Shown: positions 2,988 to 60,136, counted from the first letter of the stretch. The stretch is 64,000 nt of DNA from an uncultured Bacteroidales bacterium (GCA_963816345.1 CAWFKI010000005.1:607572-671571), one strand, 5' to 3'. A program made the numbers and translations. Notes: generated by a model from the letters alone, not told the origin.

Positions 2988-4407
2988 ATGAGAAAGTACT
3001 TCAAACAAATCAGTCAGGATTTAGTTTATCGTTTATTATTAGTCAGTATGGCAGTAATATGCCCTGTATTGGTATTTGCCCAATCCCATCCCATGCCAGT
3101 GCTCCCCGATACATCACTGTTGGGGCAATACACTTCGAGAACCATGAACCTGCTGCATCATAGTACACCCGGGGAAAAAAACAAGGTAAAGATCTTAGTC
3201 TACGGTCAGTCAATAAGTGAGCAGGAATGGTGGCTGGAGGTGAAGCGGAGTGTAGAAACACGATTCCCTGATGCCGATATCATCATGCAGAATAAGGCTA
3301 TAGGAGGATTCTCAACCCAATACCTGTATAAAACCGTTGAGATGGATGTCAGTTCTTTTTATCCGGATCTGGTACTGCTCCATATATACGGAAATATTAA
3401 CGATTATGAGAAGGTTCTGAAAACAATCCGGAGAAGAACCGCAGCTGAAGTTGCAATAACAACTGACCACTATACCGGAGAGAACAGGTGGAGCGATACA
3501 ATGTCATACTATTTACTTCCTGCACTGGCCGAAAAATATAAATGTGACCTGATAAATATACGTGATCCCTGGAAAGCATATCTTAAGGACAATAATCTTG
3601 AACCCTCCGCCCTTTTAAAGGATGGCATACATCTCAATGATTATGGAAATTTTCTGATGGCAGAACTGATTAAACCTCTTTTTTGTTTCAAAGCCCGCTT
3701 TGCCTGCGATCCCTTCAACCTGATGACTATATATAAAAACGGGAAAGATTTTAACTTTAATGGCGATACCCTCGCCCTTTCATTTCATGGAAACAAAGTT
3801 GATGTAGTTATTGAAACTACCGGGATAATCTCCCGGCGATTCCGCAAAAATCCTGCTGGACGGACAGGCTCCATCTGGTTTCCAGGGATGTTATTATATG
3901 TCACGTCCCTATTCCGGTAATGGAAAGGAATGGCCATGGAATCTGCCTGCAATGATAAGGGTAAGACATACTGAACCATGGGTTTCGGAGGAGTGGTCAT
4001 GCATTTTCACTGAAGCAATTGCACCCTATAATGATTTCAGTTTTAAAATTGCAGGATCCGTTACAGGCAGTGATGGCAGCGGGAGAGGCTCCCGTGATTT
4101 TGTCTCAAAGTCGGGAAGGGTGATTATTGATAAGGGTGATGCTGAAAATGGGGGTGACTGGCATCTGAACAGGTCATACAAGGTATTGAAAACCATTGTC
4201 AGCAAAGGTGATACGGTAAAGTGGAAAACCTATTCGATAAGTACCGATACCTTTGTTCCTGCTTCTGAAAATGACTCAGAAAGGGAAAATATTACAATCC
4301 TCTTCCAGGGAGTTCCCAACACAAACCATATTTTAAAGATTATTAAAACGGGGCAGAACTTTCCCAAAATTTCTGAAATAAGAGTTTACAAACCTTTTAT
4401 ACTGTAA
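2988..4407 (+). pseudogene. SGNH/GDSL-family hydrolase with C-terminal beta-rich domain, one frameshift
   Basis: It has a signal peptide and SGNH blocks (ILVYGQSIS, GGFST, DGIHLNDYGNFLMAE). The reading frame switches near 3826-3835: frame 0 ends VDVVIETTGII, and frame 1 continues SPGDSAKILLDGQAPSGFQGCYYMSRPY into ORF 3898..4407. Confidence 0.7.
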
Positions 4408-6996: not shown

Positions 6997-7809
6997 ATGA
7001 GGCTGGGAATAAGTTCATACACTTATACATGGGCAGTGGGAGTCCCGGGATGGGTTCCCCCGCAACCTTTATCGGCTTATGATCTCGTTGACAGGGCCAT
7101 GGCTTACGGAATAAAACTGGTGCAGATTGCTGATAACCTGCCTCTGGAGGAGATGACCAGGGAAGGCCTGGAGGATCTGTACAATTATTCCAGCCGCCGT
7201 GGTGTCGCAATTGAGATGGGAAGCAGGGGATTGACCCCTGAACATACCCTCAAATGTCTTGACACAGCTGAAAGGATTCATTCCCCGATTCTGAGAATGG
7301 TTATCGACAAACAGGGTTTTGAGCCTGATATTCAAAGTATTATTAAAATAATTTCTGATCTGATCCCTGAATTGAGCTCCAGGAAAATAAGGCTTGCAAT
7401 TGAAAACCATGATCGTTTAAAGGCCCACCAGTTTGCAGAAATTATCAGCTCTGTCAACACTGAATGGGTAGGTATTTGCCTTGATTCAGTTAACTCAATG
7501 GGTGCAGGTGAAGGTTTTGATGAGGTCGCAAATATTCTTATCCCCTTTACAATCAACCTTCATATTAAAGATTTCACAGTCCGGCGGGTTTCTCACAAAA
7601 TGGGAATAATTATCGAAGGCGCTCCGGCGGGAAGCGGGATGTTGAACATACCGGGCCTGGTTTCATCACTTTCGGAAAGAGGAAACTGCAAAAGTGCAAT
7701 TCTGGAGCTATGGACACCACCGGAGACCCTTCTTGCAGAAACGCTCCTGAAGGAAGAAAACTGGGCTTCGGAAAGTATCGGATATCTGAAAATTTTATTT
7801 TCTATCTGA
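6997..7809 (+). CDS. Sugar phosphate isomerase/epimerase (xylose-isomerase-like TIM barrel)
   Basis: 270 aa with no signal peptide. The MRLGISSYTY start and the internal ENH..., CLDSVNS and HIKD metal-ligand-type positions are typical of AP-endonuclease-2/xylose-isomerase-like TIM barrels. Confidence 0.7.
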   Translation: MRLGISSYTYTWAVGVPGWVPPQPLSAYDLVDRAMAYGIKLVQIADNLPLEEMTREGLEDLYNYSSRRGVAIEMGSRGLTPEHTLKCLDTAERIHSPILRMVIDKQGFEPDIQSIIKIISDLIPELSSRKIRLAIENHDRLKAHQFAEIISSVNTEWVGICLDSVNSMGAGEGFDEVANILIPFTINLHIKDFTVRRVSHKMGIIIEGAPAGSGMLNIPGLVSSLSERGNCKSAILELWTPPETLLAETLLKEENWASESIGYLKILFSI

Positions 7810-7853
7810 AAAACTGAATGGCATAAACTTCAATATCGTTTAAACCTCAAAAT

Positions 7854-8888
7854 ATGGCTGATTTAAAATTCGCAGTACTTGGCTGCGGTTTCTGGTCAAA
7901 ATTCCAGATTGGAGCATGGAGTGAACTGGAAGGAGTTCAACTCGTTGCAGTATATAACCGGACTGTGGCAAAGGCCAGGCAAATAGCAGATTACTTTAAT
8001 ATTCCACGGGTTTACGATAATCCTGAGGAGCTGCTCACAAAAGAAAAGCCTGATTTCGTTGATATCATAACCGATGTTGATACTCATGCCCGTTTTGTTG
8101 AGATGGCTGTGGATCACGGGATTAAATATGTTATCTGTCAGAAGCCCATGGCTCCTGATTTTGAGACTGCCAAAAGAATGGTAAAATTATGCAGTGATTC
8201 GGGCACCAGGCTTTACATACACGAGAATTACCGGTGGCAGGCTCCTGTCCGGAGATTCAGGCAGATCCTTGATTCCAGTGTAATCGGAAAGCCATTTAAG
8301 GCCAGGGTCTCATTCCTGTCGGGTTATCCTGTTTTTGACAACCAGCCTTTTCTTAAGGACCTGGATCATTTTATTCTTACAGATATGGGATCGCATATAC
8401 TGGATGTGGTACGTTTCTTTTTTGGTGAGTGCGAATCACTCTGGTGCCAGACAAGAGCGGTCAGTCAGGGAATAAAAGGAGAGGACCTTGCCGTAATGCT
8501 GATGGAAATGAAAAACGGCATGGCGGTCTATACTGAGATGTCGTATGCTTCAATTGTTGAACATGATACGTTTTCCACTCTCAATGTACTTGTAGAGGGT
8601 GAAAAGGGATCTGTTTTTCTGGGACCTGATTTTGAGATCCGGACTACAACCAGGGAGGGAACTATATCTGAGACTGTCAGGTTTCCCTCATATTCCTGGG
8701 CTGACCCTGATTATATTGTCAACCATGAAAGCGGAATTCATGTAAACCGTAACATTCTTGATGATATCAGAGGTATTGGGAAAGCGGAGAACAGCGGCGA
8801 AGATAACCTTGAGACTGTAAGACTGGTCTGGGCCGGCTACCGGTCTTCTGAAACAGATTCGAAGATTCAGTTAAAGGATTTTAAATAA
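7854..8888 (+). CDS. Gfo/Idh/MocA-family NAD(P)-dependent oxidoreductase
   Basis: It has an N-terminal Rossmann motif (KFAVLGCGFWS), the EKP-type motif (ICQKPMA), and family-typical length and C-terminal domain. Confidence 0.8.
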   Translation: MADLKFAVLGCGFWSKFQIGAWSELEGVQLVAVYNRTVAKARQIADYFNIPRVYDNPEELLTKEKPDFVDIITDVDTHARFVEMAVDHGIKYVICQKPMAPDFETAKRMVKLCSDSGTRLYIHENYRWQAPVRRFRQILDSSVIGKPFKARVSFLSGYPVFDNQPFLKDLDHFILTDMGSHILDVVRFFFGECESLWCQTRAVSQGIKGEDLAVMLMEMKNGMAVYTEMSYASIVEHDTFSTLNVLVEGEKGSVFLGPDFEIRTTTREGTISETVRFPSYSWADPDYIVNHESGIHVNRNILDDIRGIGKAENSGEDNLETVRLVWAGYRSSETDSKIQLKDFK

Positions 8889-8959
8889 AGTAACGGGAAA
8901 GTATAGCGTCTTTAATTACCGATAAGCAAATATCTATAAACCTTTATAAATATCTTATT

Positions 8960-9787
8960 ATGCAAAAAGTCGTTCTGGCTGGCGCCGGTGGCAAAATGGG
9001 GCTTCGGCTGACAAATAATCTGATGCATTCTGAATATCAGATGTCCTACCTTGAAATCAGTCCCTCAGGGATTGATAAGTTAATGGAGAAAGGTGTTGCA
9101 GTCTCGGAAGCCGGAGGTTGCATTCCTGAGGCTGACATTGTTATACTTGCCGTACCGGATGTTGCACTTGCCTCAGTATCAGCGGAGATAATTCCAAAAA
9201 TGAAAAGCGGCGCTCTCGTGGTAACCCTTGATCCTGCCGCAGCACTTGCAGGGAAACTGCATAAAAGGTCAGACGTTGCATATTTCATAACCCATCCTGC
9301 CCATCCCTCAATCTTCAACTGGGAGAAGGATGAGGAGAAAATGCATGACCATTTCGGAGGTGCATCAGCCAAACAATCCATAGTTTGCGCGTTGCTGGAT
9401 GGGTCTGAAACGGATTATCTGAAGGGTGAAAAGCTTGCCCGCACATTTTACGGACCGATCTACCGTTCGCACCGGATCACTGCTGAACAGATGGGCCTTC
9501 TTGAGCCAGCTCTGGTTGAGACGCTTGCCTCTACCTGCATATATGTGATACGCCAGGGGCTGGATGAGGTAATTAAACGGGGTGTTCCGCCTGAAGCTGC
9601 CAGGGACTTTCTGCTGGGTCACCTCAGAATACAGTTAGCGGTTCTGTTCAACGAATTGCCGGGTGCAGTATTCTCGGATGCTGCCAATAAAGCGCTTCAA
9701 CGCGGACTGAAAGAATTTATTAAGGAAGACTGGAGGAAGGTATTCGACCCCGAAAATGTAAAAGATCAGATAGAATCCATAACCTGA
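8960..9787 (+). CDS. NAD(P)-binding Rossmann oxidoreductase with 6-phosphogluconate-dehydrogenase-like C-terminal helical domain
   Basis: It has a GxGxxG start (VVLAGAGGKMG), a short Rossmann domain, and then a helical domain. The substrate is unknown. Confidence 0.55.
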   Translation: MQKVVLAGAGGKMGLRLTNNLMHSEYQMSYLEISPSGIDKLMEKGVAVSEAGGCIPEADIVILAVPDVALASVSAEIIPKMKSGALVVTLDPAAALAGKLHKRSDVAYFITHPAHPSIFNWEKDEEKMHDHFGGASAKQSIVCALLDGSETDYLKGEKLARTFYGPIYRSHRITAEQMGLLEPALVETLASTCIYVIRQGLDEVIKRGVPPEAARDFLLGHLRIQLAVLFNELPGAVFSDAANKALQRGLKEFIKEDWRKVFDPENVKDQIESIT

Positions 9788-9794
9788 ATCTGAT

Positions 9795-11090
9795 ATGAAA
9801 CGTCTTGCTAACCTGTTCATTACTTTTCTGATCTTTTCAGTCATCTCTGTTTCTGCTGACTGTCAGGGAATTATTCTGAAACAATCTGTTGCCTGCGGGA
9901 TATATAAAAAAGGGAAGAAAATATCTGTGACAGCTTATCTGCAGGAACCTCATGGTGATTCACTGCATATCAGGGTATTAAAAAATAATCTTATTGAGCT
10001 TCAAAATAAAACAATAAGTATTGAAGGCGACAGTCTGCGGGTCTTTGAAGGTTCATTCAGGGAACCCTGTTCCATTATTGTTGAAGCGGTATCCGGGGAA
10101 GACAAATCAAGTATCGGTCTTGTAGTTGAACCCCGGAAGATAAAACCCGGCGGTAAGAGGCCGTCTGATTTTAAGTCCTACTGGGAGGATCAGAGGAAAA
10201 TTCTGGAAGTGCTGCCTATGGATGTCAAAACCGCAAAGGTAGGTGAGGAGTATGTCGCTTCCGGTTACTCATGCGTTGATGCGGAGATCAGCTGTCCTGG
10301 TCCCAGACCGGCCAGGGGATATTTTGCCAAACCTGCAATAGCCTCACCGAAATCTTTACCTATAGTAATCCTTGTACATGCTGCGGGAGTAAAGGGATCA
10401 TGGTGCAGGTCTGAACCGGGCAATGCAATGAAATATGCGCTGATGGGGGCTCTCTGTTTTGATCTGAACGCCCATGGAATGCTGGACGGACAGCCGGACA
10501 GCTATTATGATGAACTGGAAAAAGGCGAGCTGAAGGATTATTTCTATCAGGGGTTGACAAGCAGGGACGATTTTTACTTCAGGGGCATGTATCTGAGACT
10601 CATGAGGACAATAGATTTTCTCACAAGGCAACCGGAGTGGGACAGGAAGAGAATCCTTGTGATCGGGGAAAGCCAGGGAGGAGGTCAGGCGCTTGTTGCT
10701 GCAGGACTGGATAAGAGAGTAAGTGCTGCCGTAGCTATTGTTCCTGCAATGTGCGACTGGCTGGGGCCACTCGCAGGACGAGAAGCAGGCTGGCCACAGC
10801 CGCTTAATGCAGATGTCCCACGCGACGAGGTAATAAAAACCGTACCATACTTTGATGCTGCTAATATATTGAAATGCTCACGGAGTATACTATTTGTTGA
10901 GATCGGCCTGATTGATATGACATGTCCTTCAACCTCGGTCTATGCTGCAATAAATCAGTCAAGAGGCAGGAAGATCGTTTACCCGGTACCATACAGGGAA
11001 CATCACCAACCACAAAATTCTATGAGCGAAATATGGCAGGAATCTGTGTATCTTCCACGTGAGAATTTTATTAAAGAATATTTAAAATAA
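9795..11090 (+). CDS. Acetyl xylan esterase / cephalosporin-C deacetylase-like (CE7/AXE1 family) with N-terminal extra domain
   Basis: It has a signal peptide. AXE1-like blocks are present: YFRGMYLRLMRTIDFL, the nucleophile elbow GESQGGGQAL, and VPAMCDW. Confidence 0.7.
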   Translation: MKRLANLFITFLIFSVISVSADCQGIILKQSVACGIYKKGKKISVTAYLQEPHGDSLHIRVLKNNLIELQNKTISIEGDSLRVFEGSFREPCSIIVEAVSGEDKSSIGLVVEPRKIKPGGKRPSDFKSYWEDQRKILEVLPMDVKTAKVGEEYVASGYSCVDAEISCPGPRPARGYFAKPAIASPKSLPIVILVHAAGVKGSWCRSEPGNAMKYALMGALCFDLNAHGMLDGQPDSYYDELEKGELKDYFYQGLTSRDDFYFRGMYLRLMRTIDFLTRQPEWDRKRILVIGESQGGGQALVAAGLDKRVSAAVAIVPAMCDWLGPLAGREAGWPQPLNADVPRDEVIKTVPYFDAANILKCSRSILFVEIGLIDMTCPSTSVYAAINQSRGRKIVYPVPYREHHQPQNSMSEIWQESVYLPRENFIKEYLK

Positions 11091-16999: not shown

Positions 17000-17230
17000 G
17001 CCCCGTAGGGGCATAATAACATAACACAGGGCAACGCCCTGTGTAAAAACGCTCTCTTCTTACCCCAAAGCCCCGTAGGGGCGGAATAACAAAACACCGG
17101 AAGATCCATTTCGTCTGATCCTCTATGGCTGATGGTATCACTTTATTACGCCCCTACGGGGCTGAAGGAGAGGGAGGTACCATCAGGCAGGGCTCCGCCC
17201 TGCCCTATAATATGTAAGGCCTACGGCCTT
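17000..17230. repeat. Cluster of six GC-rich 3-nt-loop hairpins (REP-like palindromic units)
   Basis: The six hairpins are:
- GCCCC-GTA-GGGGC at 17000-17012.
- The same hairpin at 17070-17082.
- Its inverted copy GCCCC-TAC-GGGGC at 17150-17162.
- CACAGGGC-AAC-GCCCTGTG at 17025-17043.
- GGCAGGGC-TCC-GCCCTGCC at 17186-17204.
- AAGGCC-TAC-GGCCTT plus a T-run at 17216-17232.
The GCCCCGTAGGGGC units are each followed by an RKAATAA tail. Confidence 0.7.
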
Positions 17231-22584: not shown

Positions 22585-24594
22585 TTATCTGGCTGAGTGA
22601 CTGAATGTGAGAGTCTGGCCGCCCTTAAGACCGGGATTGATAAACTCAAGCTTTACACGGGTCACACCCTTAGGCCAGTAGCTCTTTAAAACCCTGTCAG
22701 TAATATCTATATACTCAATCTGGGGTTTCACGGTTTTCGGGTCGTAACTCATATCAAGAGAGAAACCCTCCCCGGCAAAGTTCAAAAGACCTGGCTTCAG
22801 CTCCGTTACTTTACAGTATGTAATTAAGTTTGAACTTGTAACAGACTTTTTAATTCCGGCTAATTCGTACTTATCACTTATTGTAAAGCTCTTACCCCGG
22901 TTCAGGGTATAGCTCCGTATCCAGCTTTTTACAAGTGCCTCCCCGGGATATGCTCCTGCTATATCAGTGGAAAACCTTGCAGTTTTTGAGTTTGCAGTGA
23001 ATGAAGTATTCCCTGCCTTGTAGTTCGCTCCGTCTTTCTGTTCCGTACCGTTGATTACAGGAAGGTTATGAAATGCCGACTGCATCGTCCATATTTCGTA
23101 ACGCGCCGGACTGAATGTCTTTGCTGTATATTCTTCCCGGCCAAGGTCAATAATGCATGGTTTCCCGTCGTAATACATTACACAGGAGCCGACATCATTG
23201 TGGTTATGGCTCTCATCATTAAAGCCCCCTTTTGCCCCAAAAAAGAATCCCAGGTAACTTCCTTCCCTGTCGCGTGCACCAGCCACCTCTGTCTCCGGGA
23301 GCCAGAAATCAGCCACAAGCGCTTCTTTTGGAGCTGCAGTTCCGACCTCTTTCAGTAACCCGAGATTTCTGATCTGATCGCAAATTTTACCTTCAAAGCT
23401 GTGATCACCGAATTTATTAAGCCTGGCAAGATATGCGCCAAATTGCTGCATTGTCAGATCATTAATTGCTTTGCCATATCTGTAAACAGTGGAGGCGTCG
23501 CCTGTTGTCGTTGCATCTGCATCTGCGAAATTTATAAAATAAGGTGCGTGAATGTTGACTTTATAGAAGTAGGAACCTATGTTCTTTATCAGTGAGTTAT
23601 CAAACACATCAAACTTCCCGCCGGTTGCATCTTTAAGCATTTCCAGGCTCTCATACAGAAGTGCACCTGCTGCTCCCCAGTAGGAAGGACCCTCATCGCA
23701 ACCGCCATCATCCGAATACCCGTTAAGGAATTTATCGAGTGAATTTATTATCTTTTCCACTGCAGCCACTTTTTTTGCAGGATCGTTTTCAATAAGAAGA
23801 AAGCAGTTCAGCATATTATAATTGATCCACGGATTCCAGTTATTCGGCCGACCTCCTTTAAACCCCATATACCAGAAGTCATCCCGCGTAAAATAGGGGG
23901 TGAGCGCCTTATTCATTATTTCCTGCTTCAATCTTGCCGTGATCAGGGGATGGATTTTATCAAACTCATCCTTAAAAAGATATAAGGTCCATGAGAGATC
24001 ACATGCTATCTCTCCGACCCCCAGATCGACAAACGGATCGTTTATATCAGGCAGGCCGGCGCCAGCTTTCTGGGAGCCAAGATGGGCTGACCATCCCCAC
24101 CAGGTCTGTTCGCTAAAGTACCAGACGGCATTAACTATCTGATCCATAAACCGGCCGTTCCCCTCAATAAGTTCCCCCATGACCAGGGCATTAAGTGCAT
24201 CGCTGCAGGCAGCATAGGCCTCCTGGCGCCGGTCCCCGGAACGGATAAATTCCAGGTAATCAGTGGCCTTTACTACTGGCCAGTTATAGTTAAGATAACG
24301 TTCTGCCTTGTTAATATATTCCTGCCGGATACCGGAGGGCAGATTTTGCCAGAAGTTTCTATCCTTATATCCGGGAAGGGTGATCCAGGAGTTGTCAGTA
24401 ACAAGCACCTTTGCCAGATCAATTGTTTTTGCCTCGCCTGCCAGGATGTTCCTTTCCTTTGGATTCAATTCTGCAGATACTGCAATGGATGCAAAAATGA
24501 AAACCAGAGCAAAGCAGGTTGTAAATATGGGTTTCATCCCCGGGATAAATCTTTTCATAACGCTGGGAATAAAATAATTGTAAAAAAAAAGCAT
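22585..24594 (-). CDS. Heparinase II/III-family polysaccharide lyase-like protein
   Basis: It has an (alpha/alpha) toroid-like N-terminal half and the C-terminal heparinase II/III block DESHNHNDVGSCVMYYDGKPCIIDLG...WTMQSAFHN. The signal peptide begins at the internal MKRFIPGMKPIF, so the true start may be 24558. Confidence 0.75.
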   Translation of the reverse strand: MLFFYNYFIPSVMKRFIPGMKPIFTTCFALVFIFASIAVSAELNPKERNILAGEAKTIDLAKVLVTDNSWITLPGYKDRNFWQNLPSGIRQEYINKAERYLNYNWPVVKATDYLEFIRSGDRRQEAYAACSDALNALVMGELIEGNGRFMDQIVNAVWYFSEQTWWGWSAHLGSQKAGAGLPDINDPFVDLGVGEIACDLSWTLYLFKDEFDKIHPLITARLKQEIMNKALTPYFTRDDFWYMGFKGGRPNNWNPWINYNMLNCFLLIENDPAKKVAAVEKIINSLDKFLNGYSDDGGCDEGPSYWGAAGALLYESLEMLKDATGGKFDVFDNSLIKNIGSYFYKVNIHAPYFINFADADATTTGDASTVYRYGKAINDLTMQQFGAYLARLNKFGDHSFEGKICDQIRNLGLLKEVGTAAPKEALVADFWLPETEVAGARDREGSYLGFFFGAKGGFNDESHNHNDVGSCVMYYDGKPCIIDLGREEYTAKTFSPARYEIWTMQSAFHNLPVINGTEQKDGANYKAGNTSFTANSKTARFSTDIAGAYPGEALVKSWIRSYTLNRGKSFTISDKYELAGIKKSVTSSNLITYCKVTELKPGLLNFAGEGFSLDMSYDPKTVKPQIEYIDITDRVLKSYWPKGVTRVKLEFINPGLKGGQTLTFSHSAR

Positions 24595-24665
24595 CAGAAA
24601 TCCGTTGCGTAAATATATTGATTTTCTTCGTTCGCCGTTAAAAAAGTCTTTTGCACCTCCGGGTT

Positions 24666-24836
24666 CTACGCTCTTTGCCCTGTGCCCCGTGCCCTGTGCT
24701 CCGTGCTCTGTGCCCTGTGCCCTGTGCTCCGTGCTCTGTGCCCTGTGCCCTGTGCTCTGTGCCCCGTGCCCTGTGCTCTGTGCCCCGTGCCCTGTGCCAT
24801 CCGCTCCCCGTTCTTCCGTCTTCTGTCTTCTGTCTT
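24666..24836. repeat. 7-bp tandem array, about 24 units, consensus CYGTGCY decaying into CTTCYGT
   Basis: I parsed this by hand in register from 24666: ctacgct ctttgcc ctgtgcc ccgtgcc ctgtgct ccgtgct ... There is a perfect 28-bp higher-order duplication (24694-24721 equals 24722-24749). There is also a 21-bp duplication (24750-24770 equals 24771-24791). Confidence 0.9.
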
Positions 24837-24935
24837 CAAAAAGTCAATCTTTTCTCATATATTTGATTACCTCAGTTTTTAAATGGGATACCGGATTATT
24901 GGATAGAAGTTTATAATAAAATTTAACTGCGGAGT

Positions 24936-26606
24936 ATGAAACTTAAGATTTTTTTACCGGCAACACTGTTTTTCATTATGATTCAGGCTGTTAAAGCGGA
25001 ACCACTTCATCAGTGGGAGGTGTTCACTGTCTCATTTACATCAGGGAAGATTTATTCAAATCCCTACAGCGATATCCCTGTCGCGGGTGGGGATGATCTG
25101 CTGAAGGTGACCTTTCTGGGGACGGGAGGTGAGGCAATGAATAAGAAAATTACAGTAGTCGGATTCTGGGATGGCGGTTCTGTATGGCGGGTCAATTTTA
25201 CAGCTCCCTTCACCGGCAGCTGGAAATACAGCAGTCAGTCGGCCGACAGGAAGATGAACGGCAAAAAGGGAAGCTTTGATGTAGTGGCATGGACTGAGGA
25301 AGAGAAGAATGCCGTTCCTGTAAGGCACGGTTTCATAACTGTGAAAAATGATGGCAAACAGAGTGGCCATTATTTTGAATATTCCGACGGTCACCCTTTT
25401 CTCTGGATTGGTGACACCTGGTGGAACTGGACTGACGGGAGGATCCATTTTGATTCATTCAAAAAGCTTGTCGATAACAGGGCGGAGAAGGGTTTTAACA
25501 TTGGTCAGCTCTTTGTCCCGGGGAACGGCTGGGGCATTGAGAGCTCCATGCTGGATACGACCTACAATATTCTGGATACCGAACATGTGAAGAGGGTGGA
25601 GGAGATGATCAGGTACGCAAATTCAAAAGGCATTACGGTATGGATACACGGATGGTGGAGCAGGCCTGATCTGAAGAGCAGCGTAGGGGCGGAAAAGATC
25701 GAACGCTGGTGGCGCTACCTGATACATCGTTTCGGAGCATACAATGTGATATGGGTTCTTGCCGGTGAATATAATATGAATAATTATGGTGGCTTCAGTC
25801 TTGACTTCTGGAAGAAACTGGGGAGCATGATAAAGAAAGAGGATCCTTATAACAGGATTGTGGGTGTCCACAGTACGCCTCCTTTCTGGGAAGGTGGTGC
25901 GGAAGCTCCTCAATGGGCAACCGGGAGTGTTTTGAATCAGGAGCCGTGGCTGGATTATAACCAGAGCCAGGTTGGCCACGGCAGGTATGCGAATGAGATG
26001 ATCCCGTTGGTTGTGGCGGAAGAGTACAGTCTCAGTCCTGCCAAACCTATTGTTGTGACTGAACCATGGTACGAATTTATTGAGGGTAATCCGACCGGGA
26101 AAGATATCAGGTTTGGGGCATGGTCGGCAATTCTCTCAGGTGCAGCAGGGCACTCTTACGGGGGAGGGCATGTATGGCTGGCAAGTGTTCCGGAATCGCC
26201 TGCAGGTGAAGGAGACTGGCCTATGGAGAAAGGATTTGACCGGACCACATATGATTATGAAGGAGCGGTATCGATGAAGAACCTGGCAGGGTTCTTCAGG
26301 GATGTAAAGTGGTGGAACATGGCGCCGCATCCGGAGCTGGTAAAGGAATATCCGCAGCCTTTCTGCCTTGCGGATCCCGGGAAGGAATATGTTTTATATC
26401 TGAGGTATGCGGGGATGGTGAAGGTTAAAATGGATCAGCCGGCCACTTCGGGAAAATATCTGTACAGGTGGTTTGATCCGGCTTCGGGTAAATTCTCAGA
26501 AGAGAAGAGCTTTCAGGGATCGGATATGCTTGAATTTCATTGTCCCGAATCATTCCCTGCTGTTCCCGGCTATAAGGATTGGGTTCTTTATATCAGAAGG
26601 CTTTAA
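24936..26606 (+). CDS. GH140-like glycoside hydrolase (DUF5060 N-terminal domain plus DUF4038 catalytic domain)
   Basis: It has a signal peptide and a DUF5060-like beta-sandwich (VVGFWDGGSVWRVNFTAPFTGSWKYSS). The DUF4038 hallmark SDGHPFLWIGDTWWNW...AEKGFNIGQ follows. It is a paralogue of 5591..6994. Confidence 0.75.
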   Translation: MKLKIFLPATLFFIMIQAVKAEPLHQWEVFTVSFTSGKIYSNPYSDIPVAGGDDLLKVTFLGTGGEAMNKKITVVGFWDGGSVWRVNFTAPFTGSWKYSSQSADRKMNGKKGSFDVVAWTEEEKNAVPVRHGFITVKNDGKQSGHYFEYSDGHPFLWIGDTWWNWTDGRIHFDSFKKLVDNRAEKGFNIGQLFVPGNGWGIESSMLDTTYNILDTEHVKRVEEMIRYANSKGITVWIHGWWSRPDLKSSVGAEKIERWWRYLIHRFGAYNVIWVLAGEYNMNNYGGFSLDFWKKLGSMIKKEDPYNRIVGVHSTPPFWEGGAEAPQWATGSVLNQEPWLDYNQSQVGHGRYANEMIPLVVAEEYSLSPAKPIVVTEPWYEFIEGNPTGKDIRFGAWSAILSGAAGHSYGGGHVWLASVPESPAGEGDWPMEKGFDRTTYDYEGAVSMKNLAGFFRDVKWWNMAPHPELVKEYPQPFCLADPGKEYVLYLRYAGMVKVKMDQPATSGKYLYRWFDPASGKFSEEKSFQGSDMLEFHCPESFPAVPGYKDWVLYIRRL

Positions 26607-26833
26607 GGCATGAAGTATCTGATGATCTGAATTATGGTCAATACATACTGTTTATCTTCTGTTGATAGTCAACTCATTAATTGACTTTACGAATTCATAA
26701 TGCAATTCAATAAAAATATTTAACTTGTGGTACAATGTGAGAGTCAGGCAAAAGCATAATAAAGAGTATGTTGTGGGGATAATATTTGCAGGTGCTTCTG
26801 TGACTGACGGGGCGGGAGCGTCGGCGGAGGGGA

Positions 26834-26964
26834 GAGCGTAGAGCGTAGACATTGCCAGCCGTAGCTTCTATTACCTGCAGAGTATTATCAAGTGAGAAAG
26901 CGAAGGCTGGGCGTAGAGTAAAGAGATTAGTAATCGGTATTCAGTATTCGGTAATCGGTAAGTT
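26834..26964. repeat. Composite intergenic element: heptamers (GAGCGTA x2), 17-nt core, 31-nt variable insert, GGCTGGGC, then heptamers (GTAATCG/GTATTCG x5)
   Basis: The core ATTGCCAGCCGTAGCTT (26851-26867) is the exact reverse complement of 40123-40139. AGCGAAGGCTGGGC matches the reverse complement of 40078-40091 with one mismatch. A 12-bp palindrome, cctcccgggagg, follows at 26975-26986. Confidence 0.8.
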
Positions 26965-27178
26965 CAGAGAATCTCCTCCCGGGAGGGGCAGGGGTGGGTT
27001 TAAGCTAAGGAGAAGTAGTTAGTAAGCAGTACTTGGTAATAGTATCAACTTTTCTTGACCTTAACAGGAGAAGATTCTAACCTGTAACAGTTGCTTTCTC
27101 GAACAGTTTGGTTAAAGTGTGCGTTAACAGGCATCAGACCTTTAAAATCAAATTTGTATTTTAAAAAACAGGCCATTT

Positions 27179-28399
27179 ATGAAAACAGTCAAATTACTCG
27201 CATTAATTTTATTCTTTACAGAAATGGCTTACTCGCAAAACACAGATGATGTGGTCATTGCAAAAAGAATCAGGATAACTTCGGCCATACTGAGTGAGGA
27301 ACGGACAATTTCCGTTTCTACTCCAAACGGTTATAATGAATCGAAGGATTCTTATCCGGTGCTGTATGTCCTGGATGGAGAGACCGCAGTCATAGGACTC
27401 CTGAATTATTTATCTGACTATGGTGTGTGTCCCAAACTGATTATTGTCTCTGTTGAAGGAGTCAACCCTTCAAGGGATATGTTTCCATCCAGGCCAAAAT
27501 ATAGCAGAGGTACACAACCGGCAAAACCCTGGTATAACAAAGAAGAGGATAATAATTTAAGAGCCTCCTTGCCCGGTGAAAAATTGGGAGAGGCAGATAA
27601 TTACCTCTCATTTATTGAAACAGAGCTTTTCCCTTTTATCGAAAAAAACTACCGTACGGTCCCTTACAGAATTTGTTGTGGTCATTCAAAAGGCGGTCTC
27701 TGCGTAACCCATGCTTTCCTTTCCCACACTGATATGTTTAATGCCTTTATTGCTCTAAATCCTTCTCTTTATTGGGACGACGGATTAGTGCTGAAGACTG
27801 CAGAACAAAAACTCACAAGCCTGAACCTTAAGCACAAGCTGTTTTATTTCGATATAGGAGGTAATGAAGTTCCTTCTACTATTGGAGATGCATTTGCTTT
27901 TGCCCGGATAATAAAAGAAAATGCCTCTGCAGACCTGAGATGGAAACTTGACTATCTGGCTAATGAAAGCCATAGCAGCGGGACAGCTGTCGGGATTATT
28001 AATGCACTGAAATTTATTTATGATGGCTGGGATTTTGATATTAACAAAATAAAGCGGGAAGGGGTAGCAGCTATTGATAGTTTTTATAAGAATCTTTCAG
28101 AAAGGTATGGATACAGGATTTCATACGATGCAGCTCTGTTGAATAATTATGGGTGGGGTTATGTACGTGATGGCAGGCATGAAGAGGCTATAAAAATATT
28201 CCGGGAAAATGTCCGTAGATTCCCTGATTCACCTGATGCGTACAACTACCTTGGGGAAGGATATCTGGCAGCCAATCATATTGAAATGGCAATTAAGAGT
28301 TATGAAAAGGCAATAGAACTGGCAACATCTTCAGAGGATGATCAAAAAGTGGCTTTTTTAAAGAGCCGGATCGAAAGTATCAAAGCAGGTAAAAAGTAA
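27179..28399 (+). CDS. Secreted alpha/beta-hydrolase esterase (esterase D/IroE-like 'putative esterase' fold) with C-terminal TPR repeats
   Basis: It has a signal peptide, YPVLYVLDG, and the nucleophile elbow CGHSKGG. The C-terminal ~90 aa has a TPR pattern (AYNYLGEGYLAANHIEMAIKSYEKAIEL). Confidence 0.7.
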   Translation: MKTVKLLALILFFTEMAYSQNTDDVVIAKRIRITSAILSEERTISVSTPNGYNESKDSYPVLYVLDGETAVIGLLNYLSDYGVCPKLIIVSVEGVNPSRDMFPSRPKYSRGTQPAKPWYNKEEDNNLRASLPGEKLGEADNYLSFIETELFPFIEKNYRTVPYRICCGHSKGGLCVTHAFLSHTDMFNAFIALNPSLYWDDGLVLKTAEQKLTSLNLKHKLFYFDIGGNEVPSTIGDAFAFARIIKENASADLRWKLDYLANESHSSGTAVGIINALKFIYDGWDFDINKIKREGVAAIDSFYKNLSERYGYRISYDAALLNNYGWGYVRDGRHEEAIKIFRENVRRFPDSPDAYNYLGEGYLAANHIEMAIKSYEKAIELATSSEDDQKVAFLKSRIESIKAGKK

Positions 28400-40005: not shown

Positions 40006-40044
40006 TATTATATCTTTTAATTTAAACCACGACCCACAAACTGG

Positions 40045-40175
40045 CTCTACGCTCTACGCTCGTCCCTGTGCCCTGTGCCCAGCCTCCGCTACAACCTTTG
40101 CTAAAGCTACGGTTGTCGAAGAAAGCTACGGCTGGCAATGCCTGTGCTCTGTGCTCTGAGCCCTGCGCCCTGCGC
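40045..40175. repeat. Composite intergenic element, inverted copy of the 26.85 kb element, flanked by heptamers (CTCTACG x2, CTGTGCC x2, then CTCTGTG/CCCTGCG)
   Basis: AAGCTACGGCTGGCAAT (40123-40139) is the exact reverse complement of 26851-26867. The internal part has the direct repeat AAAGCTACGG x2 and the ACAACC/GGTTGT inverted repeat. It lies between two same-strand genes (40005 and 40180). Confidence 0.85.
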
Positions 40176-40179
40176 TTTA

Positions 40180-42154
40180 TCACCCCAGCATCACCTGTCC
40201 CCCGGTGACGGGAACAGCCTGCCCTGTTTCATATTCCTGGTCGATAATATATAAAAGGGCCTTCATGACATCCTCCAGTTTACAGCCCCTCTTAATAGGG
40301 ACCTGGTCTTCATAAAATTTCCTTACATCCTCAATATTCTTTGCTCCGGGCACCTTACCTGTCTTAAGATACTGGACAAACAATCCGTTATGGGGATCTG
40401 ACCATAGGGGACCTTCATAAAAATTACCCGGGCAAATGGAATTTACTTTGATCCTGTAGGGAGCCAGTTCCATTGCAAATGACTGGGTGAGGCCAATTCC
40501 TCCGAATTTAGCACCGGCATACGCGAAGTTCCGGTTCGATCCTCTCAGCCCTGATTTGGAGTTGATCTGGATAATATCCGTAAAAGCCGGAGGATTTTCC
40601 TTGTTCTGAAGTTTCATAACTTCTGAAGCATATTTTACACAATGGAAGTACCCGTTATAGTTTACCTCAGTTGATTTTAAGAATACATCAGGATCCATTT
40701 CATCAAGCCCGCCGGCCTTTAATATCCCGGCATTTGCTACCATAAGATCAAGACCTCCGAATTCCTTTACAGTTGAGATTATCATCTCCTTCACCGACTC
40801 AGGATCTGCCACATCAGTTTTAATAAATACCGCATTATTGAATCTCTTATTCTTTATAAGCCCAGATACAAATGTTTTACCCGCTTTCTTCATTAAGATC
40901 GGCCACTACTACATTAAGGTTCATCGAATAGAGAGCCTCTGCAATTCCGGCACCAAATCCCTGGGCTCCGCCGGTAACAATGGCGATTTTATTATTAAGT
41001 CTGCTTCCCTGGCTGGCTGAAGCGTGAGACTTTTCTTCTGTAATTCTCAACCTCCCACTGATCAATAAATGCAACCTGGTCAGGGGTAAGGAATTTGATA
41101 CCTCCGCAGAGGCTTGCATAGTAGCTTATCCTTATGAAATCTTCATATACATCAAGAGCTGCCTCAGCCGAAGCATAGTTCTCAGCGAAGGCAAAGATCC
41201 CCATATCCTTTATTACAACTATCCTGGGTGAGTAACCATATTCGCTGATGAAATGCGGAAGCTGGTACCTGAAGGAATCCAGTATTTTTTCCGCCGTTGA
41301 TGAATGTTCTATGTAGAGATATCTTGTCTTGCAATAAACGATAATATCCGGTGTAAGAGGCAGTGAGATCTTATGAAACTCGATTTGGTTCTGATAAAAC
41401 CTGGCAATAACTGAATTATTTCTGAACCTCATAATCCCCTGGGCTTCGCCTGAGAGCAGGGCCCTTAAGCCGGGAAGAACTTTGTGAAGCAAAGGGTTAT
41501 AGGGCAGGGGATCAATTTCCGTCAGGGGAGTATCTGTTCTCCGATCTTTTGTATTATACCATTGTATATTTCCCTGATCTCCTGAGTTGTATCAGCGCCC
41601 ACAAATACCCCGTGGTTTTCAAGGAATATGATCCCCGGATCATTGGAGAGCTTCTGCCGGTAGTTTATGATCTCCGCCTCAAGTTTCTTAAAAAGAATAT
41701 AACCCGGATCGGTATAGGGTACGAAGAGTACAGTATCGCCGAATAGTTTGGCGGTCAGGTTCTTTGCATTCCTGCTGCAGAGTAGTCCGTTAATGATAGT
41801 AGGATGGAGGTGAACTACAAATCTGTACCGGATGATTTCATGGAGGGAAGTCTCAACGGATGGGCGTTTGTTTTTACCGGGATCAAGAATACTCAGAAAC
41901 ATATCACCCTTAACCTGCTCCTCCCTTATGGAGGGCTCATCAGAATAGGTTTTTGAGGATATGACATGAAGCTTTTCCCTGTCAAGTGCTACAAGGCTCT
42001 CCTCGGTCATTTCAGCCAGTGACTGACCGCTTGCCTTTATCCAGATGGTCCCATTATCCTTGAATGAGGTGTTTCCTCCTCCTGCTATGACATATTCCTT
42101 ATTATTTCCGTAGTGCCTCGATATTTCAATCAGTTCTTTTATTTCCGGCTTCAT
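40180..42154 (-). pseudogene. Bifunctional class II aldolase/adducin-domain plus short-chain dehydrogenase (rhamnulose-1-phosphate aldolase/SDR-like), split by three frameshifts
   Basis: Four consecutive ORFs read as one ~650-700 aa protein. They are 41522..42154 (AGGGNTSFK aldolase N-terminus), 40995..41492 (middle, WEVENYRRKV), 40877..41119 (SDR TGGAQGFG) and 40180..40893 (NAG...YAGAK... SDR core). The junctions are at the G4/C4 run at 41525-41528, the T4/A4 run near 41041-41044, and near 40880-40892. Confidence 0.8.
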
Positions 42155-57238: not shown

Positions 57239-60037
57239 ATGATCCGATATTCAGGATTTATTGTCATGCTTATAACTGTTGCCGTTTTATTATCCGGCTG
57301 CAAAAGCAAAAGCAAAGACATCTATATTATCTCTGCTCCCGCAGGGAGTTTATATACGGGAATAAATAAAGATGGCATAACTGTCATTCCTAACGGCCGG
57401 TTACTTACACCCGCAGGAAAGAGCCTTGAAATTGCACCGCATCCTTTCGGTCTGATTCTAAGCAGAGACGGGAAGACCGCGGTTACAGCTAATTCAGGGA
57501 TAAATCCTCTTTCAATTTCAATTATCCGCAATATAACCTCCTCCCCGGAGATTATTCAGGTTCCACCCGGCTACTCTACAAACAAAGGAGTTATTGAATC
57601 CGTATTTATGGGTCTGGCAATCTCACCCGCAAACGATAAGGTTTATGTCTCTGCAGGACAGGATAACAAAATCCTTGTTTTTGACCTGGCAACAGGCCGT
57701 AAGACAGATTCCCTTGACTGCTCCGTATCGGAAGATGGGACCTCTTACCCCGATGGATATATAGGTGATATGGTTATCTCAGGAGACGGGAGTCACATCT
57801 TTGCTGTTGATCAGACAAATTTCCGTCTGATAATAGCAGACACCCGCCGGATGAAGGTGATTAATTCCGTACCTGTCGGAAGGTATCCATTCGGTGTTGC
57901 ACTTACCCGTGATGAGAAAAAGGTCTATGTGGCAAATGTCGGCATGTTCCGCTATAGCAAGATTGGAAATATCGAACAGGCCTCTGATTACAGTAAAGCC
58001 CTTAATTTTCCTGCTTTTGCGTACAATACCGTTGAGATGAGGAACGGAATTTTCAATGATTCGGTGAAAATTCCGGGACTGGGAGATCCGAATAGCGATC
58101 TTGCCTTCTCAGTCTGGGCGGTCTCGGTTGAAGACCTGTTGCACCCCCGGGTGGTTGCAAGGATCAAGACAGGAAACCTTGTGGGGCAAATGGTGGAAGG
58201 TATTCCGGCTGTAGGCGGATCTAGTCCGAATTCACTTGTAGCTACAGCTGATTATCTTTTTGCAAGCAACGGGAATAATGATAATATAACAGTAATTGAT
58301 ATTAAAAAGGATTCGGTAGTAAAAGAGATCTTTTTAAAGCCTCATGAGGCTGTAAAGCATTTTCGCGGGATAATTCCGTTCGGACTTGCAGTCTCACCGG
58401 ATGAGAGAAAACTCTTTGCAGCTGAGGCCGGTATTAATGCCGTTGCGGTAATAGATCTTCCATCCTTTGTGGTAAAGGGTCACATTCCCGTTGGCTGGTT
58501 TCCTTCAAAGATTCAGGTAACGCCTGATGGCAAAACGCTTATTGTTGCCAATGCCAAGGGCTTTGGGAGCGGTCCTAACGGAGGCAGGAATTTTATAGAG
58601 AAAGAGGAGGGTACCTATATAGGAAATCTGATGAAGGGTACAGTTTCCATTGTTGATATCCCCTCTGAAAGAGAGCTGAAAAAGATGACTGACCTGGTGA
58701 TCAGCAATAATTTTCTGATAGAAAAAGCAGGAGAGAAAAAAGCGGGCAGGGTGAATAATCCTGTTCCTCTGTACGGAGGTGAAAAGGAGTCTCCCCTTAA
58801 ATATATTGTCTTCATTTCCAAGGAGAACAGGACTTATGATGAAATATTCGGGCAGAATGTCAACGGGGACGGAGATTCTTCAATTGCTAGATACGGAAAC
58901 CATGTTTCCTTTTCAAACAGGGCAGGAACCAGAGTCGTAGAGGATGCAAGCGTGATGACCAACCATCTCGTGCTTGCTTCGCGCTTTGCCATGGCTGATA
59001 ATTTTTATGTCGACTCCGATGTTTCGGCAGACGGCCACCGGTGGCTGGTAAATACTTACCCGAATGAATGGGTTGAGACATGTACGCCCGCAGCCTATGG
59101 AGGGAACAGGGATTACCGTCCCTCATCCAAAGCTCCCGGGAGCCTGGCCATGAATGGGTCTGCAGGTGCAATATTCCCGGAGGATTATAATGAGTCGGGC
59201 TCAATGTGGGACCATCTTGAAAGGAATAAAATAGACTTTTTTAATTTTGGTTTCAGTGTGATGTTCGAACCAGCATTTTACGATGCTTCCTATAAAAAGA
59301 CAGGCATAAAGCAATTTGCGAACTTTCCTGTACCAACACCTCTGTTCAACAGGACATCAAGAAATTATGCAACGTATAACATGGGTATTCCTGATCAGCA
59401 CAGAGTGAACCAGTTTATAGGGGAGTTCAGGGAAAAGTGGATGGGAGAGGGGAAAAAAATGCCTCAGATGCTTACCGTAATAATTCCGAATGATCATGGT
59501 GCCGATGAACGCCCTGAGGCGGGGTATCCCTTCAGGGAGAGCTATATGGCAGATAATGATTTTGCTGTAGGCAGGATAGTGGAATTCCTATCCCATACCC
59601 CTTACTGGAAGCAGATGGCAATTATTATCACCGAAGATGATGCCCAGAATGGAGTCGACCATATCGATGCTCACAGGAGCATTCTCATGGTCGTCTCCCC
59701 ATATGCCAGAAAAAATTATGTCAGTAAAGTGCATTACAGCTTCGGAAGTATATTCAAGACATTCTGGGATATTCTGGGTCTTCCATACCTGAATCAATAT
59801 GATGCCGGGGCAACGGACCTGTCGGATATGTTTACGGTAGATCCCGATTTTACTCCATATACAGCCATGCCGCCAGACAAGAGGATCTTTGATCCGGAGA
59901 AGGCGCTTACTCCCCTGGATGAAAAATTCGACTGGAACGCCCTGAAGGAATCACCTGTTCTTGATGATCCGGAGGAGATGCCAATTGATCAGAAGGAAAG
60001 AGCTGTTTACAGGACTGAGGATCAGAAGAAAAAATAA
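57239..60037 (+). CDS. Lipoprotein fusing a YncE/YVTN-type beta-propeller to a phosphoesterase (PLC/AcpA-like) domain
   Basis: It has a lipobox (LLSGC). Repeated propeller blades are present (KVYVSAGQDNKILVFD, KVYVANVG, KLFAAEAGINAVAVID, TLIVANAKG). The phosphoesterase blocks are IVFISKENRTYDEIFG and ITEDDAQNGVDHIDAHRS. Confidence 0.75.
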   Translation: MIRYSGFIVMLITVAVLLSGCKSKSKDIYIISAPAGSLYTGINKDGITVIPNGRLLTPAGKSLEIAPHPFGLILSRDGKTAVTANSGINPLSISIIRNITSSPEIIQVPPGYSTNKGVIESVFMGLAISPANDKVYVSAGQDNKILVFDLATGRKTDSLDCSVSEDGTSYPDGYIGDMVISGDGSHIFAVDQTNFRLIIADTRRMKVINSVPVGRYPFGVALTRDEKKVYVANVGMFRYSKIGNIEQASDYSKALNFPAFAYNTVEMRNGIFNDSVKIPGLGDPNSDLAFSVWAVSVEDLLHPRVVARIKTGNLVGQMVEGIPAVGGSSPNSLVATADYLFASNGNNDNITVIDIKKDSVVKEIFLKPHEAVKHFRGIIPFGLAVSPDERKLFAAEAGINAVAVIDLPSFVVKGHIPVGWFPSKIQVTPDGKTLIVANAKGFGSGPNGGRNFIEKEEGTYIGNLMKGTVSIVDIPSERELKKMTDLVISNNFLIEKAGEKKAGRVNNPVPLYGGEKESPLKYIVFISKENRTYDEIFGQNVNGDGDSSIARYGNHVSFSNRAGTRVVEDASVMTNHLVLASRFAMADNFYVDSDVSADGHRWLVNTYPNEWVETCTPAAYGGNRDYRPSSKAPGSLAMNGSAGAIFPEDYNESGSMWDHLERNKIDFFNFGFSVMFEPAFYDASYKKTGIKQFANFPVPTPLFNRTSRNYATYNMGIPDQHRVNQFIGEFREKWMGEGKKMPQMLTVIIPNDHGADERPEAGYPFRESYMADNDFAVGRIVEFLSHTPYWKQMAIIITEDDAQNGVDHIDAHRSILMVVSPYARKNYVSKVHYSFGSIFKTFWDILGLPYLNQYDAGATDLSDMFTVDPDFTPYTAMPPDKRIFDPEKALTPLDEKFDWNALKESPVLDDPEEMPIDQKERAVYRTEDQKKK

Positions 60038-60052
60038 AAATGGGTCAAAGAG

Positions 60053-60136
60053 CTCAGGGCGAAGGGCGCCGGGCTCAGGGCGCAGGGCTCAGGGCTCAGA
60101 GCACAGGGCTCAGGGCAAGGGGCACAGAGCGGAGAG
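60053..60136. repeat. 7-bp tandem array, 12 units, consensus CNCAGGG (complement of the CYGTGCY/CCCTGNG family)
   Basis: I parsed this in register: ctcaggg cgaaggg cgccggg ctcaggg cgcaggg ctcaggg ctcagag cacaggg ctcaggg caagggg cacagag cggagag. It begins 16 nt after the stop at 60037. Confidence 0.9.

Follow-up and report, generated by a model that had tools for sequence, protein, structure and literature searches.

Between the divergently oriented genes for a heparinase II/III-like lyase and a GH140-like glycosidase, a Prolixibacteraceae-like Bacteroidales genome carries an array of tandem heptanucleotides. We consider it probable that this focal array is a slippage-generated heptanucleotide SSR of the G3N4/C3N4 type, lineage-specific, dispensable and fast-evolving. 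The array has a higher-order repeat structure, and arrays of the same unit are dispersed over many genomes, mostly directly behind stop codons and so oriented that the sense strand is the G-rich one. Between close relatives whole arrays have been gained or lost, and an adjoining sub-array has changed its copy number. Positions refer to the window, i.e. the whole stretch of 64,000 nucleotides of DNA that was analysed.

Structure of the focal array

Counted in a single register from 24666, positions 24666–24840 hold about 25 in-register heptamers, made up of ~19 CYCYGTG-type units and a (TCTTCTG)3.7 tail. This agrees with the initial annotation, which had given about 24. The array is divided as follows:

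24666–24798, minus strand: main heptamer array of ~19 units (sequence, TRF), C-rich on the plus strand (CCCTGTG, CCCCGTG, CTCCGTG, CTCTGTG) and G-rich on the minus strand (CACAGGG and variants), with a higher-order unit of 28 nt; absent from the relatives L443 and L442
24799–24811, no strand assigned: degenerate transition units (CCATCCGCTCCCCG) joining the two unit types (sequence)
24812–24837, no strand assigned: (TCTTCTG)3.7 sub-array (TRF) abutting the conserved right-hand promoter block; orthologous to (CTTCYGK)n of L443 (~8 units) and L442 (~6 units)

TRF calls positions 24676–24798 twice, once with a period of 7 (17.6 copies, 84% matches) and once with a period of 28 (4.4 copies, 90% matches). 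The longest exact repeat inside the array measures 41 nt and is found at 24689 and 24717, i.e. at an offset of 28 nt. Exact 21-mers are located at both 24680 and 24757, and a 34-nt segment is repeated at a 21-nt offset with 97% identity. The higher-order structure described earlier, with units of 28 bp and 21 bp occurring twice each, is thus plainly present. At the transition from the main array to the TCTTCTG sub-array (24799–24811) the register shifts by at most 1 nt. When periods of 3–15 were tested across the window only 7 and 14 reached at least 34 of 42 sliding-window self-matches, and the tandem (GCYCYGN), repeated twice or more, occurs three times in the window versus 0.03 times in shuffles; the period-7 signal is therefore not due to chance.

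Flanking genes and candidate promoters

The genes on either side and the promoter elements proposed for them are:

22585–24558, minus strand: heparinase II/III-like lyase gene, likely start 24558, first in-frame ATG 24594; orthologues of 657 aa with PF07940
24936–26606, plus strand: GH140-like gene (DUF5060 and Apiosidase), from ORF call, domain and protein matches
24610–24617, minus strand: candidate Bacteroidetes-type -7 box TATATTTA of the lyase operon, from motif match and conservation in both relatives
24858–24865, plus strand: candidate -7 box TATATTTG of the GH140-like gene, from motif match, within a block (AAAAAGTCAATCTTTTCTCATATATTTGATT) kept in both relatives

The lyase start had been placed at 24594, but 24558 is more likely, since it yields the 657 aa called for the orthologues in both relatives. 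With this start the intergenic gap would measure 377 nt instead of 341 nt. Even of the shorter gap, which the array had been said to fill for the most part, it occupies ~175 nt, roughly half.

The flanking genes, the PL-type lyase operon on one side and the GH140-like glycosidase on the other, code for glycan-degrading enzymes and include no surface or host-interaction genes. The GH140-like protein shows at most 75% identity to any protein in the species-level genome collection. Its best matches come from Bacteroidales and Prolixibacteraceae MAGs, and a protein of Aquipluma nitroreducens shares 73% identity with it. The host genome is a Prolixibacteraceae-like Bacteroidales with a low GC content (43.5%). 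An exact-sequence protein look-up of five flanking ORFs for further assemblies of the same strain returned zero records. A short-read contig of 2101 nt from ERR11594405 (Logan), corresponding to about 24768–26868 of the window, encodes an identical GH140-like protein. One end of this contig lies inside the focal array and the other at the 17-mer core of array 2, so the heptamer repeats evidently break short-read assembly.

Both boxes match the Bacteroidetes -7 consensus TAnnTTTG, the minus-strand box having A in place of the final G. Judged by motif and conservation these are candidate promoter positions. Relative to both candidate -7 boxes the focal array is upstream; it does not reach into either candidate core promoter and, if the boxes are real promoters, is not part of a 5’-UTR. 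The presumed -33 region has the orthologous CTTCYGK sub-array as its immediate neighbour.

Comparison with two close relatives

Two relatives have the same gene neighbourhood as the window: L443 (= L362), with a GH140-like protein of 96% amino acid identity at ~93–95% nucleotide identity, and L442 (91% and ~90%). Both flanks of the focal array are conserved in L443 and L442, including the -7-like boxes on the minus and on the plus strand. The two candidate -7 boxes stand 240 nt apart in the window, compared with 171 nt (L443) and 350 nt (L442); neither the length nor the phase of this spacing is conserved. The (CTTCYGK)n array next to the right-hand block is found in all three genomes with ~4.7 units in the window, ~8 in L443 and ~6 in L442; all these copy-number differences are differences between species. 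The CCCTGTG array is restricted to the window among the three genomes compared. At its site the relatives carry an unrelated 66-nt segment with a hairpin, and L442 has 2.3 GGGCTCA units in opposite orientation.

The idea that the array expanded recently by slippage or unequal exchange fits the 41-nt exact repeat at the 28-nt offset and the absence of the main array at ~90–95% nucleotide identity. The arrays of the window and of L443 have similar starts (GGGTTCTACGCTCTTTGCC and GGGTTCTGTCTTCTGCC, respectively). Taken together with the near in-register continuity into the sub-array, this likeness suggests that the main array may have grown in place from a variant unit.

A further array, (GAAGACN)n, is located downstream of the GH140-like gene in both relatives and absent from the window. 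It has 7.6 units in L443, where it begins 6 nt after the stop codon, and 5.6 units in L442, ~150 nt after the stop codon. Comparison of L443 9137–9195 with L442 11650–11850 and window 26604–26760 shows that ~150 nt between the GH140 stop and (GAAGACN)n have been lost in L443. As a consequence the array begins 6 nt past the stop, which provides a concrete route by which an array comes to abut a stop codon. L442 additionally contains a gene for 849 aa (7379–9928, no Pfam match) between the lyase operon and the GH140-like gene, directly behind the conserved promoter-like block.

Other arrays and hairpin cores in the window

Three further regions of the window contain heptamer arrays, every one of them intergenic:

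26797–26849, plus strand: G-rich stretch, then (AGAGCGT)2.4 (array 2 region; TRF)
26850–26912, minus strand: core A, a hairpin element that reads GCCCAGCCTTCGC...AAGCTACGGCTGGCAATG on this strand (sequence comparison, folding)
26930–26961, plus strand: (GTAATCG)4.6 heptamer array (TRF)
26966–27003, plus strand: core B, in which the hairpin CTCCTCCCGGGAGGGG and the compact G-quadruplex motif GGGAGGGGCAGGGGTGGG overlap; near-identical copy in L443 16545–16582
40044–40080, minus strand: (GCTCTAC)2.6, then (CCCTGTG)2.4 (array 3 region; TRF)
40081–40140, minus strand: core A with a second hairpin nested in its loop (ACAACC-TTTGCTAAAGCTAC-GGTTGT), folding at -27.2 kcal/mol, z -2.3
40141–40176, minus strand: (CCTGNGC)5 array (array 3), G-rich on the minus strand, starting 4 nt past the stop of ORF 40180–40893
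60052–60136, plus strand: ~12 GGGCNCA-type units (array 4), G-rich on the plus strand, 15 nt past the stop of ORF 57239–60037, with canonical G4 motifs

All three regions had been listed as related to the focal array. This holds for 60052–60136, which has the focal unit in reverse orientation, and for 40141–40176, also of the focal unit. It does not hold for 26797–26961, which is built of different heptamers and tied to the focal class only through its period, a TCTACGC unit and the shared core. Positions 40044–40176 represent two short arrays of the same family (2.4 and 5 units) separated by a 60-nt hairpin core. Within the window the orientation of the arrays follows the local gene direction and not one replication strand; GC skew likewise follows gene orientation.

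Array 2, read on the reverse strand, and array 3 have a common architecture of heptamers, GCCCAGCCTYCGCT, ~45 nt, AAGCTACGGCTGGCAATG and heptamers, with an exact 17-mer in the hairpin core. The simple form of this hairpin, GCCAGCC-TTCGCTGAAGCTAC-GGCTGGC, is present in two copies in the Bacteroidetes MAG L247. The 17-mer core AGCTACGGCTGGCAATG has 70 matches in the genome collection, and ~70 are expected by chance. Since the count equals the chance expectation, conservation of the core as a motif does not extend beyond this lineage, the two copies of L247 excepted. The hairpins have a conserved loop (TTYGCTRAAGCTAC) on differing stems (GCCAGCC/GGCTGGC; ACAACC/GGTTGT) and were observed at 26850–26912 and 40081–40140 of the window and at 4268–4284 and 6255–6271 of L247. 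In the window one copy is nested within the loop of another. In L247 the hairpin is part of a ~300-nt multi-hairpin element occurring twice within 2 kb, which has no Rfam match.

A second core (CTCCTCCCGGGAGGGGCAGGGGTGGGTTTAA) stands beside heptamers at 26966–27003 and has an almost identical copy in L443 at a non-orthologous site. The conserved element measures ~40 nt (CAGAGAATCTCCTCCCGGGAGGGGCAGGGGTGGGTTTAA), comprises a hairpin as well as a compact G-quadruplex motif and is flanked by different heptamer arrays in the window and at L443 16545–16582. Looser look-alikes adjoin arrays in L178, L442, L115 and L156. Searches of the whole window against Rfam at the gathering threshold gave zero matches; with E values up to 10, positions 24400–27300 gave chance-level matches only, and L247 likewise nothing meaningful.

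Two observations apart from the heptamers were made in the window. A palindrome (GCCCCGTAGGGGC) occurs in three copies (two direct, one inverted), each with a ATAACAnAACAC tail, at 17000–17163. These copies are intergenic and precede the gene that starts at 17776; they make up a small REP-like hairpin repeat with no relation to the heptamers. ORF 40180–40893 (minus strand), upstream of array 3, begins with MKKAGKTFVSGL... and resembles a short-chain dehydrogenase without the usual N-terminal nucleotide-binding motif. ORF 40995–41492, also on the minus strand, is situated 100 nt upstream of it, and judging from the translation the two may be a split or frameshifted gene.

Dispersal and position of the repeats

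On the G-rich strand the units of the family read GGGCACA, GGGCTCA and GGGGCAC, i.e. G3N4. Scans of the genome collection with (GCYCYGN)5 and (CCCTGWG)5 returned at least 120 matches each. Among the matches listed, GGGCWCA/CCCTGWG arrays were found in many low-GC Bacteroidales MAGs, several of them with multiple loci, and further hosts were Acidobacteriota, cyanobacteria (Phormidium, Aetokthonos), Lysobacterales, Rhodobacterales, Acetobacter, actinomycetes, Geobacter and others. With Proteobacteria and Actinobacteria included, the heptamer is present in at least five phyla. The arrays are frequently compound, having other short-period units alongside. As the initial annotation had proposed, this is a dispersed class and not a single microsatellite, the focal unit forming arrays elsewhere in the window and in many Bacteroidales MAGs. 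A scan of viral contigs with (CCCTGWG)5 yielded only 6 loci and hence no sign of phage carriage.

Unrelated long heptamer arrays were also seen in Bacteroidales MAGs: (ATACTGA)n in L169 (3403–3460), close to the published TAACTGA, and (AGGAGTA)10 in L111 (860–925). The constant feature appears to be the period of 7 and not the sequence of the unit.

The arrays are mostly located outside genes. Of the arrays in high-GC loci, 1 of 108 lies within a predicted ORF; heuristic ORFs enclose 9 of 86 arrays in low-GC loci, and that of the focal array is spurious. In low-GC loci, with ORFs called heuristically, the position relative to genes was tabulated for every TRF array whose period is a multiple of 7. 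Such a tabulation, as the initial annotation had suggested for related genomes, revealed a clear bias: within 30 nt after a stop codon, low-GC loci have 26 arrays with more G than C on the sense strand versus 2 with more C than G, and 7 arrays are near starts. Between convergent genes the array abuts the gene whose sense strand is the G-rich strand (7 of 7 pairs). The bias is weaker in high-GC loci, with 30 versus 16 arrays after stops and, upstream of starts, 12 versus 3 arrays in favour of G on the antisense strand. Arrays 3 and 4 of the window follow the post-stop rule at 4 nt and 15 nt after the respective stop codons. Terminator-like hairpins, as called by a crude detector, follow 4 of 31 post-stop arrays versus 106 of 982 ordinary stops, which is no difference.

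A setting between divergent genes applies to 2 of 44 arrays, and the focal array is this rare case. Its orientation fits an upstream-antisense placement only relative to the GH140-like gene. Given that the family sits mostly behind stop codons and that the repeats of Rehm et al. 2015 (PMC4692102) are under-represented between divergent ORFs, the focal array has to be considered an atypical member.

G-quadruplex and folding potential

The focal array has 12 tracts of three or more G in ~19 units, the remainder being GAG variants, and array 4 has 10 such tracts in ~12 units. Canonical G4 motifs, defined by at least four G tracts and loops of at most 7 nt, number zero in the focal array, zero in array 3 and three in array 4. 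That the focal array is devoid of canonical motifs results from its 28-nt unit, in which two GGG units alternate with two GAG units; once loops of up to 12 nt are permitted, four G4 motifs are found. Single-strand folding of the array strands gave no defined structure (empty centroid), and including G-quadruplex energies in ViennaRNA changed the MFE by only 0.5 kcal/mol. G4 formation is thus plausible for some members by motif content, and is not a conserved property of the copies in the window.

Relation to described repeats

The initial annotation knew of no named repeat family to which the arrays could belong. They do belong with the long SSRs of Mrazek et al. 2007 (summarised in PMC4679880) and with the G-rich heptamers of Rehm et al. 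2015 (PMC4692102), positional bias included. The latter are heptameric SSRs that form quadruplexes, the unit being GGGAATC in Xanthomonas and GGGGA(C/T)T in Nostoc, for which G4 and i-motif formation has been demonstrated in vitro (PMC4692102). They show the same bias towards positions after stop codons with the G-rich strand as sense strand, are under-represented between divergent ORFs, and have no link to phase variation and no function found (Rehm et al. 2015, PMC4692102). Like the present arrays, these repeats are tandem 7-nt units with a G3–4 tract, which in the focal array is confined to part of the units, and are intergenic, dispersed (in hundreds of copies) and positionally biased. In both cases copy number differs between close relatives at one gene pair, divergent ORFs are rare neighbours and no particular gene functions are associated. 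The present arrays differ in their unit, GGGCWCA, in their Bacteroidales host and in array length, which is not centred on four units but ranges from 5 to more than 20. In addition, the G tracts of the focal array are interrupted, with zero canonical G4 motifs, and it sits between divergent genes.

According to the survey by Mrazek et al. 2007, as summarised in later papers, period 7 is the dominant class of long SSRs in prokaryotes; these SSRs occur mainly in large high-GC genomes and in cyanobacteria, and slippage has been proposed as their origin (PMC4679880, PMC4692102). The arrays studied here share the period, the mostly intergenic location and the non-pathogen hosts with these SSRs, but the GGGCWCA unit and this lineage are not described in that survey, and the genome of the window is low in GC. 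Similarities also exist to the cyanobacterial STRR, heptanucleotides of Calothrix (cited in PMC4692102), and to the TAACTGA repeats (PMC4679880): all are intergenic tandem heptamers with several unit types side by side, found in some Bacteroidetes and cyanobacteria, and their long arrays are missing from the same site in close relatives. The unit sequences differ. TAACTGA repeats are mostly located just upstream of start codons (MacGregor 2015, PMC4679880), whereas GGGCWCA arrays are found mostly right after stop codons. The focal unit matches neither the STRR units named in these papers nor GGGGAYT and its host is a Bacteroidales, not a cyanobacterium; the CCCTGWG unit itself is present in the cyanobacteria Phormidium and Aetokthonos.

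In the searchable literature we found no paper containing dimers of the GGGCWCA/CCCTGWG unit. What is new is the particular unit, undescribed in that literature; the kind of repeat, its distribution and its positional bias have already been published for other units.

Arrays 2 and 3 resemble enterobacterial REP/BIME mosaics in being small GC-rich hairpins of intergenic or intercistronic location that are repeated in the genome. Unlike REP/BIME, the hairpins are separated by heptamer arrays and occur in two copies in 64 kb.

Origin and possible function

The focal array most likely would have grown in place via slipped-strand mispairing and unequal exchange. Multi-unit blocks of 28 nt and 21 nt would have been duplicated, probably starting from a variant unit inside the older (CTTCYGK)n array that the relatives still have. 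Arrays of this class are scattered through the non-coding DNA of the Prolixibacteraceae-like lineage, the same unit being found in many other bacteria. The focal copy would act as a length-variable, dispensable spacer between two divergent core promoters, presumably part of neither and needed by neither gene. Both slippage as the origin and the neutrality of the focal array we infer from sequence comparison. The post-stop, sense-strand bias, which is unexplained by pure neutral slippage, suggests selection or a directed process, and the recurrence of the heptamer across phyla likewise goes beyond slippage alone.

One explanation for such a bias would be a functional non-B-DNA or RNA element, in which the G-rich strand, as non-template DNA or as 3’-UTR RNA, forms G-quadruplexes or R-loops that aid the ending or the stability of transcripts. 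The focal copy would then be displaced and might insulate the promoters via G4 or i-motif. The G3N4 units, the canonical G4 motifs of array 4, the stop-codon bias of 26 versus 2 with all seven convergent pairs in line, and an array orientation tracking local gene direction instead of one replication strand all agree with this reading. So do the compact G4 motifs in core B, which adjoin arrays in two genomes, and the in vitro formation of G4 and i-motif by related heptamers (PMC4692102). However, the focal array and array 3 lack a canonical G4 motif, the focal array requiring loops of up to 12 nt, and the gain in G-quadruplex energy is only 0.5 kcal/mol (ViennaRNA). The bias is weaker in high-GC taxa (30 versus 16), arrays come and go between close relatives, which implies that no single copy is required, and Rehm et al. 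found no function (PMC4692102). We therefore regard this element as unlikely. A broader proposal, which we hold to be quite unlikely, is that GGGCWCA/CCCTGWG arrays constitute a cross-phylum functional 3’-end module of convergent or horizontal origin acting through G-quadruplexes or R-loops, or that they are laid down by a transcription-coupled process. The copy between divergent promoters would be a by-product, possibly an insulating one.

The focal array could also be a contingency locus at which gain or loss of 7 bp shifts helical phase and spacing of the divergent lyase and GH140 promoters, thereby switching or tuning expression. Its location between divergent genes would suit such a role, as would the CTTCYGK sub-array, which adjoins the presumed -33 region with copy numbers that vary from one relative to the next. 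There is a precedent for control of expression by heptamer SSRs in Haemophilus influenzae, where expression of the adhesin genes hmw1A and hmw2A is inversely proportional to the number of upstream ATCTTTC repeats; this repeat is transcribed within the 5’-UTR, pairs with a G-rich arm and is cut by RNase III (PMC12721329). The focal region likewise has a heptamer array upstream of a gene, and the pyrimidine-rich hmw unit resembles the TCTTCTG sub-array. In contrast to hmw, the genes beside the focal array encode enzymes, the array is located upstream of their candidate promoters, and nothing analogous to the 5’-UTR hairpin was seen. On motif evidence, which is provisional, it lies upstream of both candidate -7 boxes and not between promoter elements. 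The box spacing of 240, 171 and 350 nt does not conserve a phase, and relatives with intact promoter blocks do without the main array. These points lend no support to the earlier suggestion that copy-number change could retune both promoters by helical phase. Furthermore, most family members sit after stop codons and not in promoters, the repeats of Rehm et al. are under-represented between divergent ORFs and have no link to phase variation (PMC4692102), and the flanking genes encode polysaccharide-degrading enzymes instead of the surface antigens typical of contingency loci. A contingency locus is therefore very unlikely.

Still less probable is that the arrays are carried by, or represent the ends of, a small non-autonomous transposable element of the MITE or REP/BIME kind inserted between genes. 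An 8-bp direct repeat (AAAAAGTC) flanks the focal array, the hairpin core common to arrays 2 and 3 includes an exact 17-mer, the Bacteroidetes MAG L247 has two copies of a related core, and core B is also found in L443 at a non-orthologous site. Against it, the focal array has neither a core nor terminal inverted repeats, the 17-mer occurs at chance frequency (70 matches, ~70 expected), and the near in-register continuity into the orthologous sub-array (shift of at most 1 nt at 24799–24811) fits growth in place. Both copies of AAAAAGTC, the right-hand one as AAAAAATC, are present in the relatives without the main array. A target-site duplication was thus rejected, as the flanks pre-exist in L443 and L442, and with it the mobile-element reading fails.

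Finally, we give next to no credence to the array being an artefact of assembly or coding for part of a Cys/Pro-rich repeat protein, although an open frame of 103 aa (ORF 24605–24916) spans it and the short-read contig with the identical GH140 protein breaks inside it: the frame starts with TTG, has zero Pfam matches and is without a counterpart in L443 and L442, for which reasons the coding reading was rejected, and an artefact is unlikely in view of the 3.18-Mb source contig and the orthologous sub-array in two independent assemblies, the imperfect units and structured higher-order repeats pointing the same way. Open frames across such arrays are to be expected, since G-rich heptamers lack stop codons in all frames, and the contig breaks inside the focal array and at core A are consistent with real repeats.

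In summary, a lineage-specific SSR generated by slippage remains our preferred explanation of the focal array. For the lyase and GH140-like genes the result is mainly negative, as nothing points to a regulatory switch. In practical terms, arrays of this kind break short-read assemblies and give rise to spurious Cys/Pro-rich ORFs; they could also be used as strain markers. If the proposed 3’-end module were true, a stop-codon array with a G-rich sense strand would end or stabilise transcripts. Bacterial heptamer repeats are little studied and are now extended to Bacteroidales with the GGGCWCA unit, and the stop-codon and sense-strand placement of the Xanthomonas and Nostoc repeats also holds in these low-GC genomes. 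The question of why period-7 repeats accumulate, and why they do so just after genes, thereby becomes testable in another lineage.
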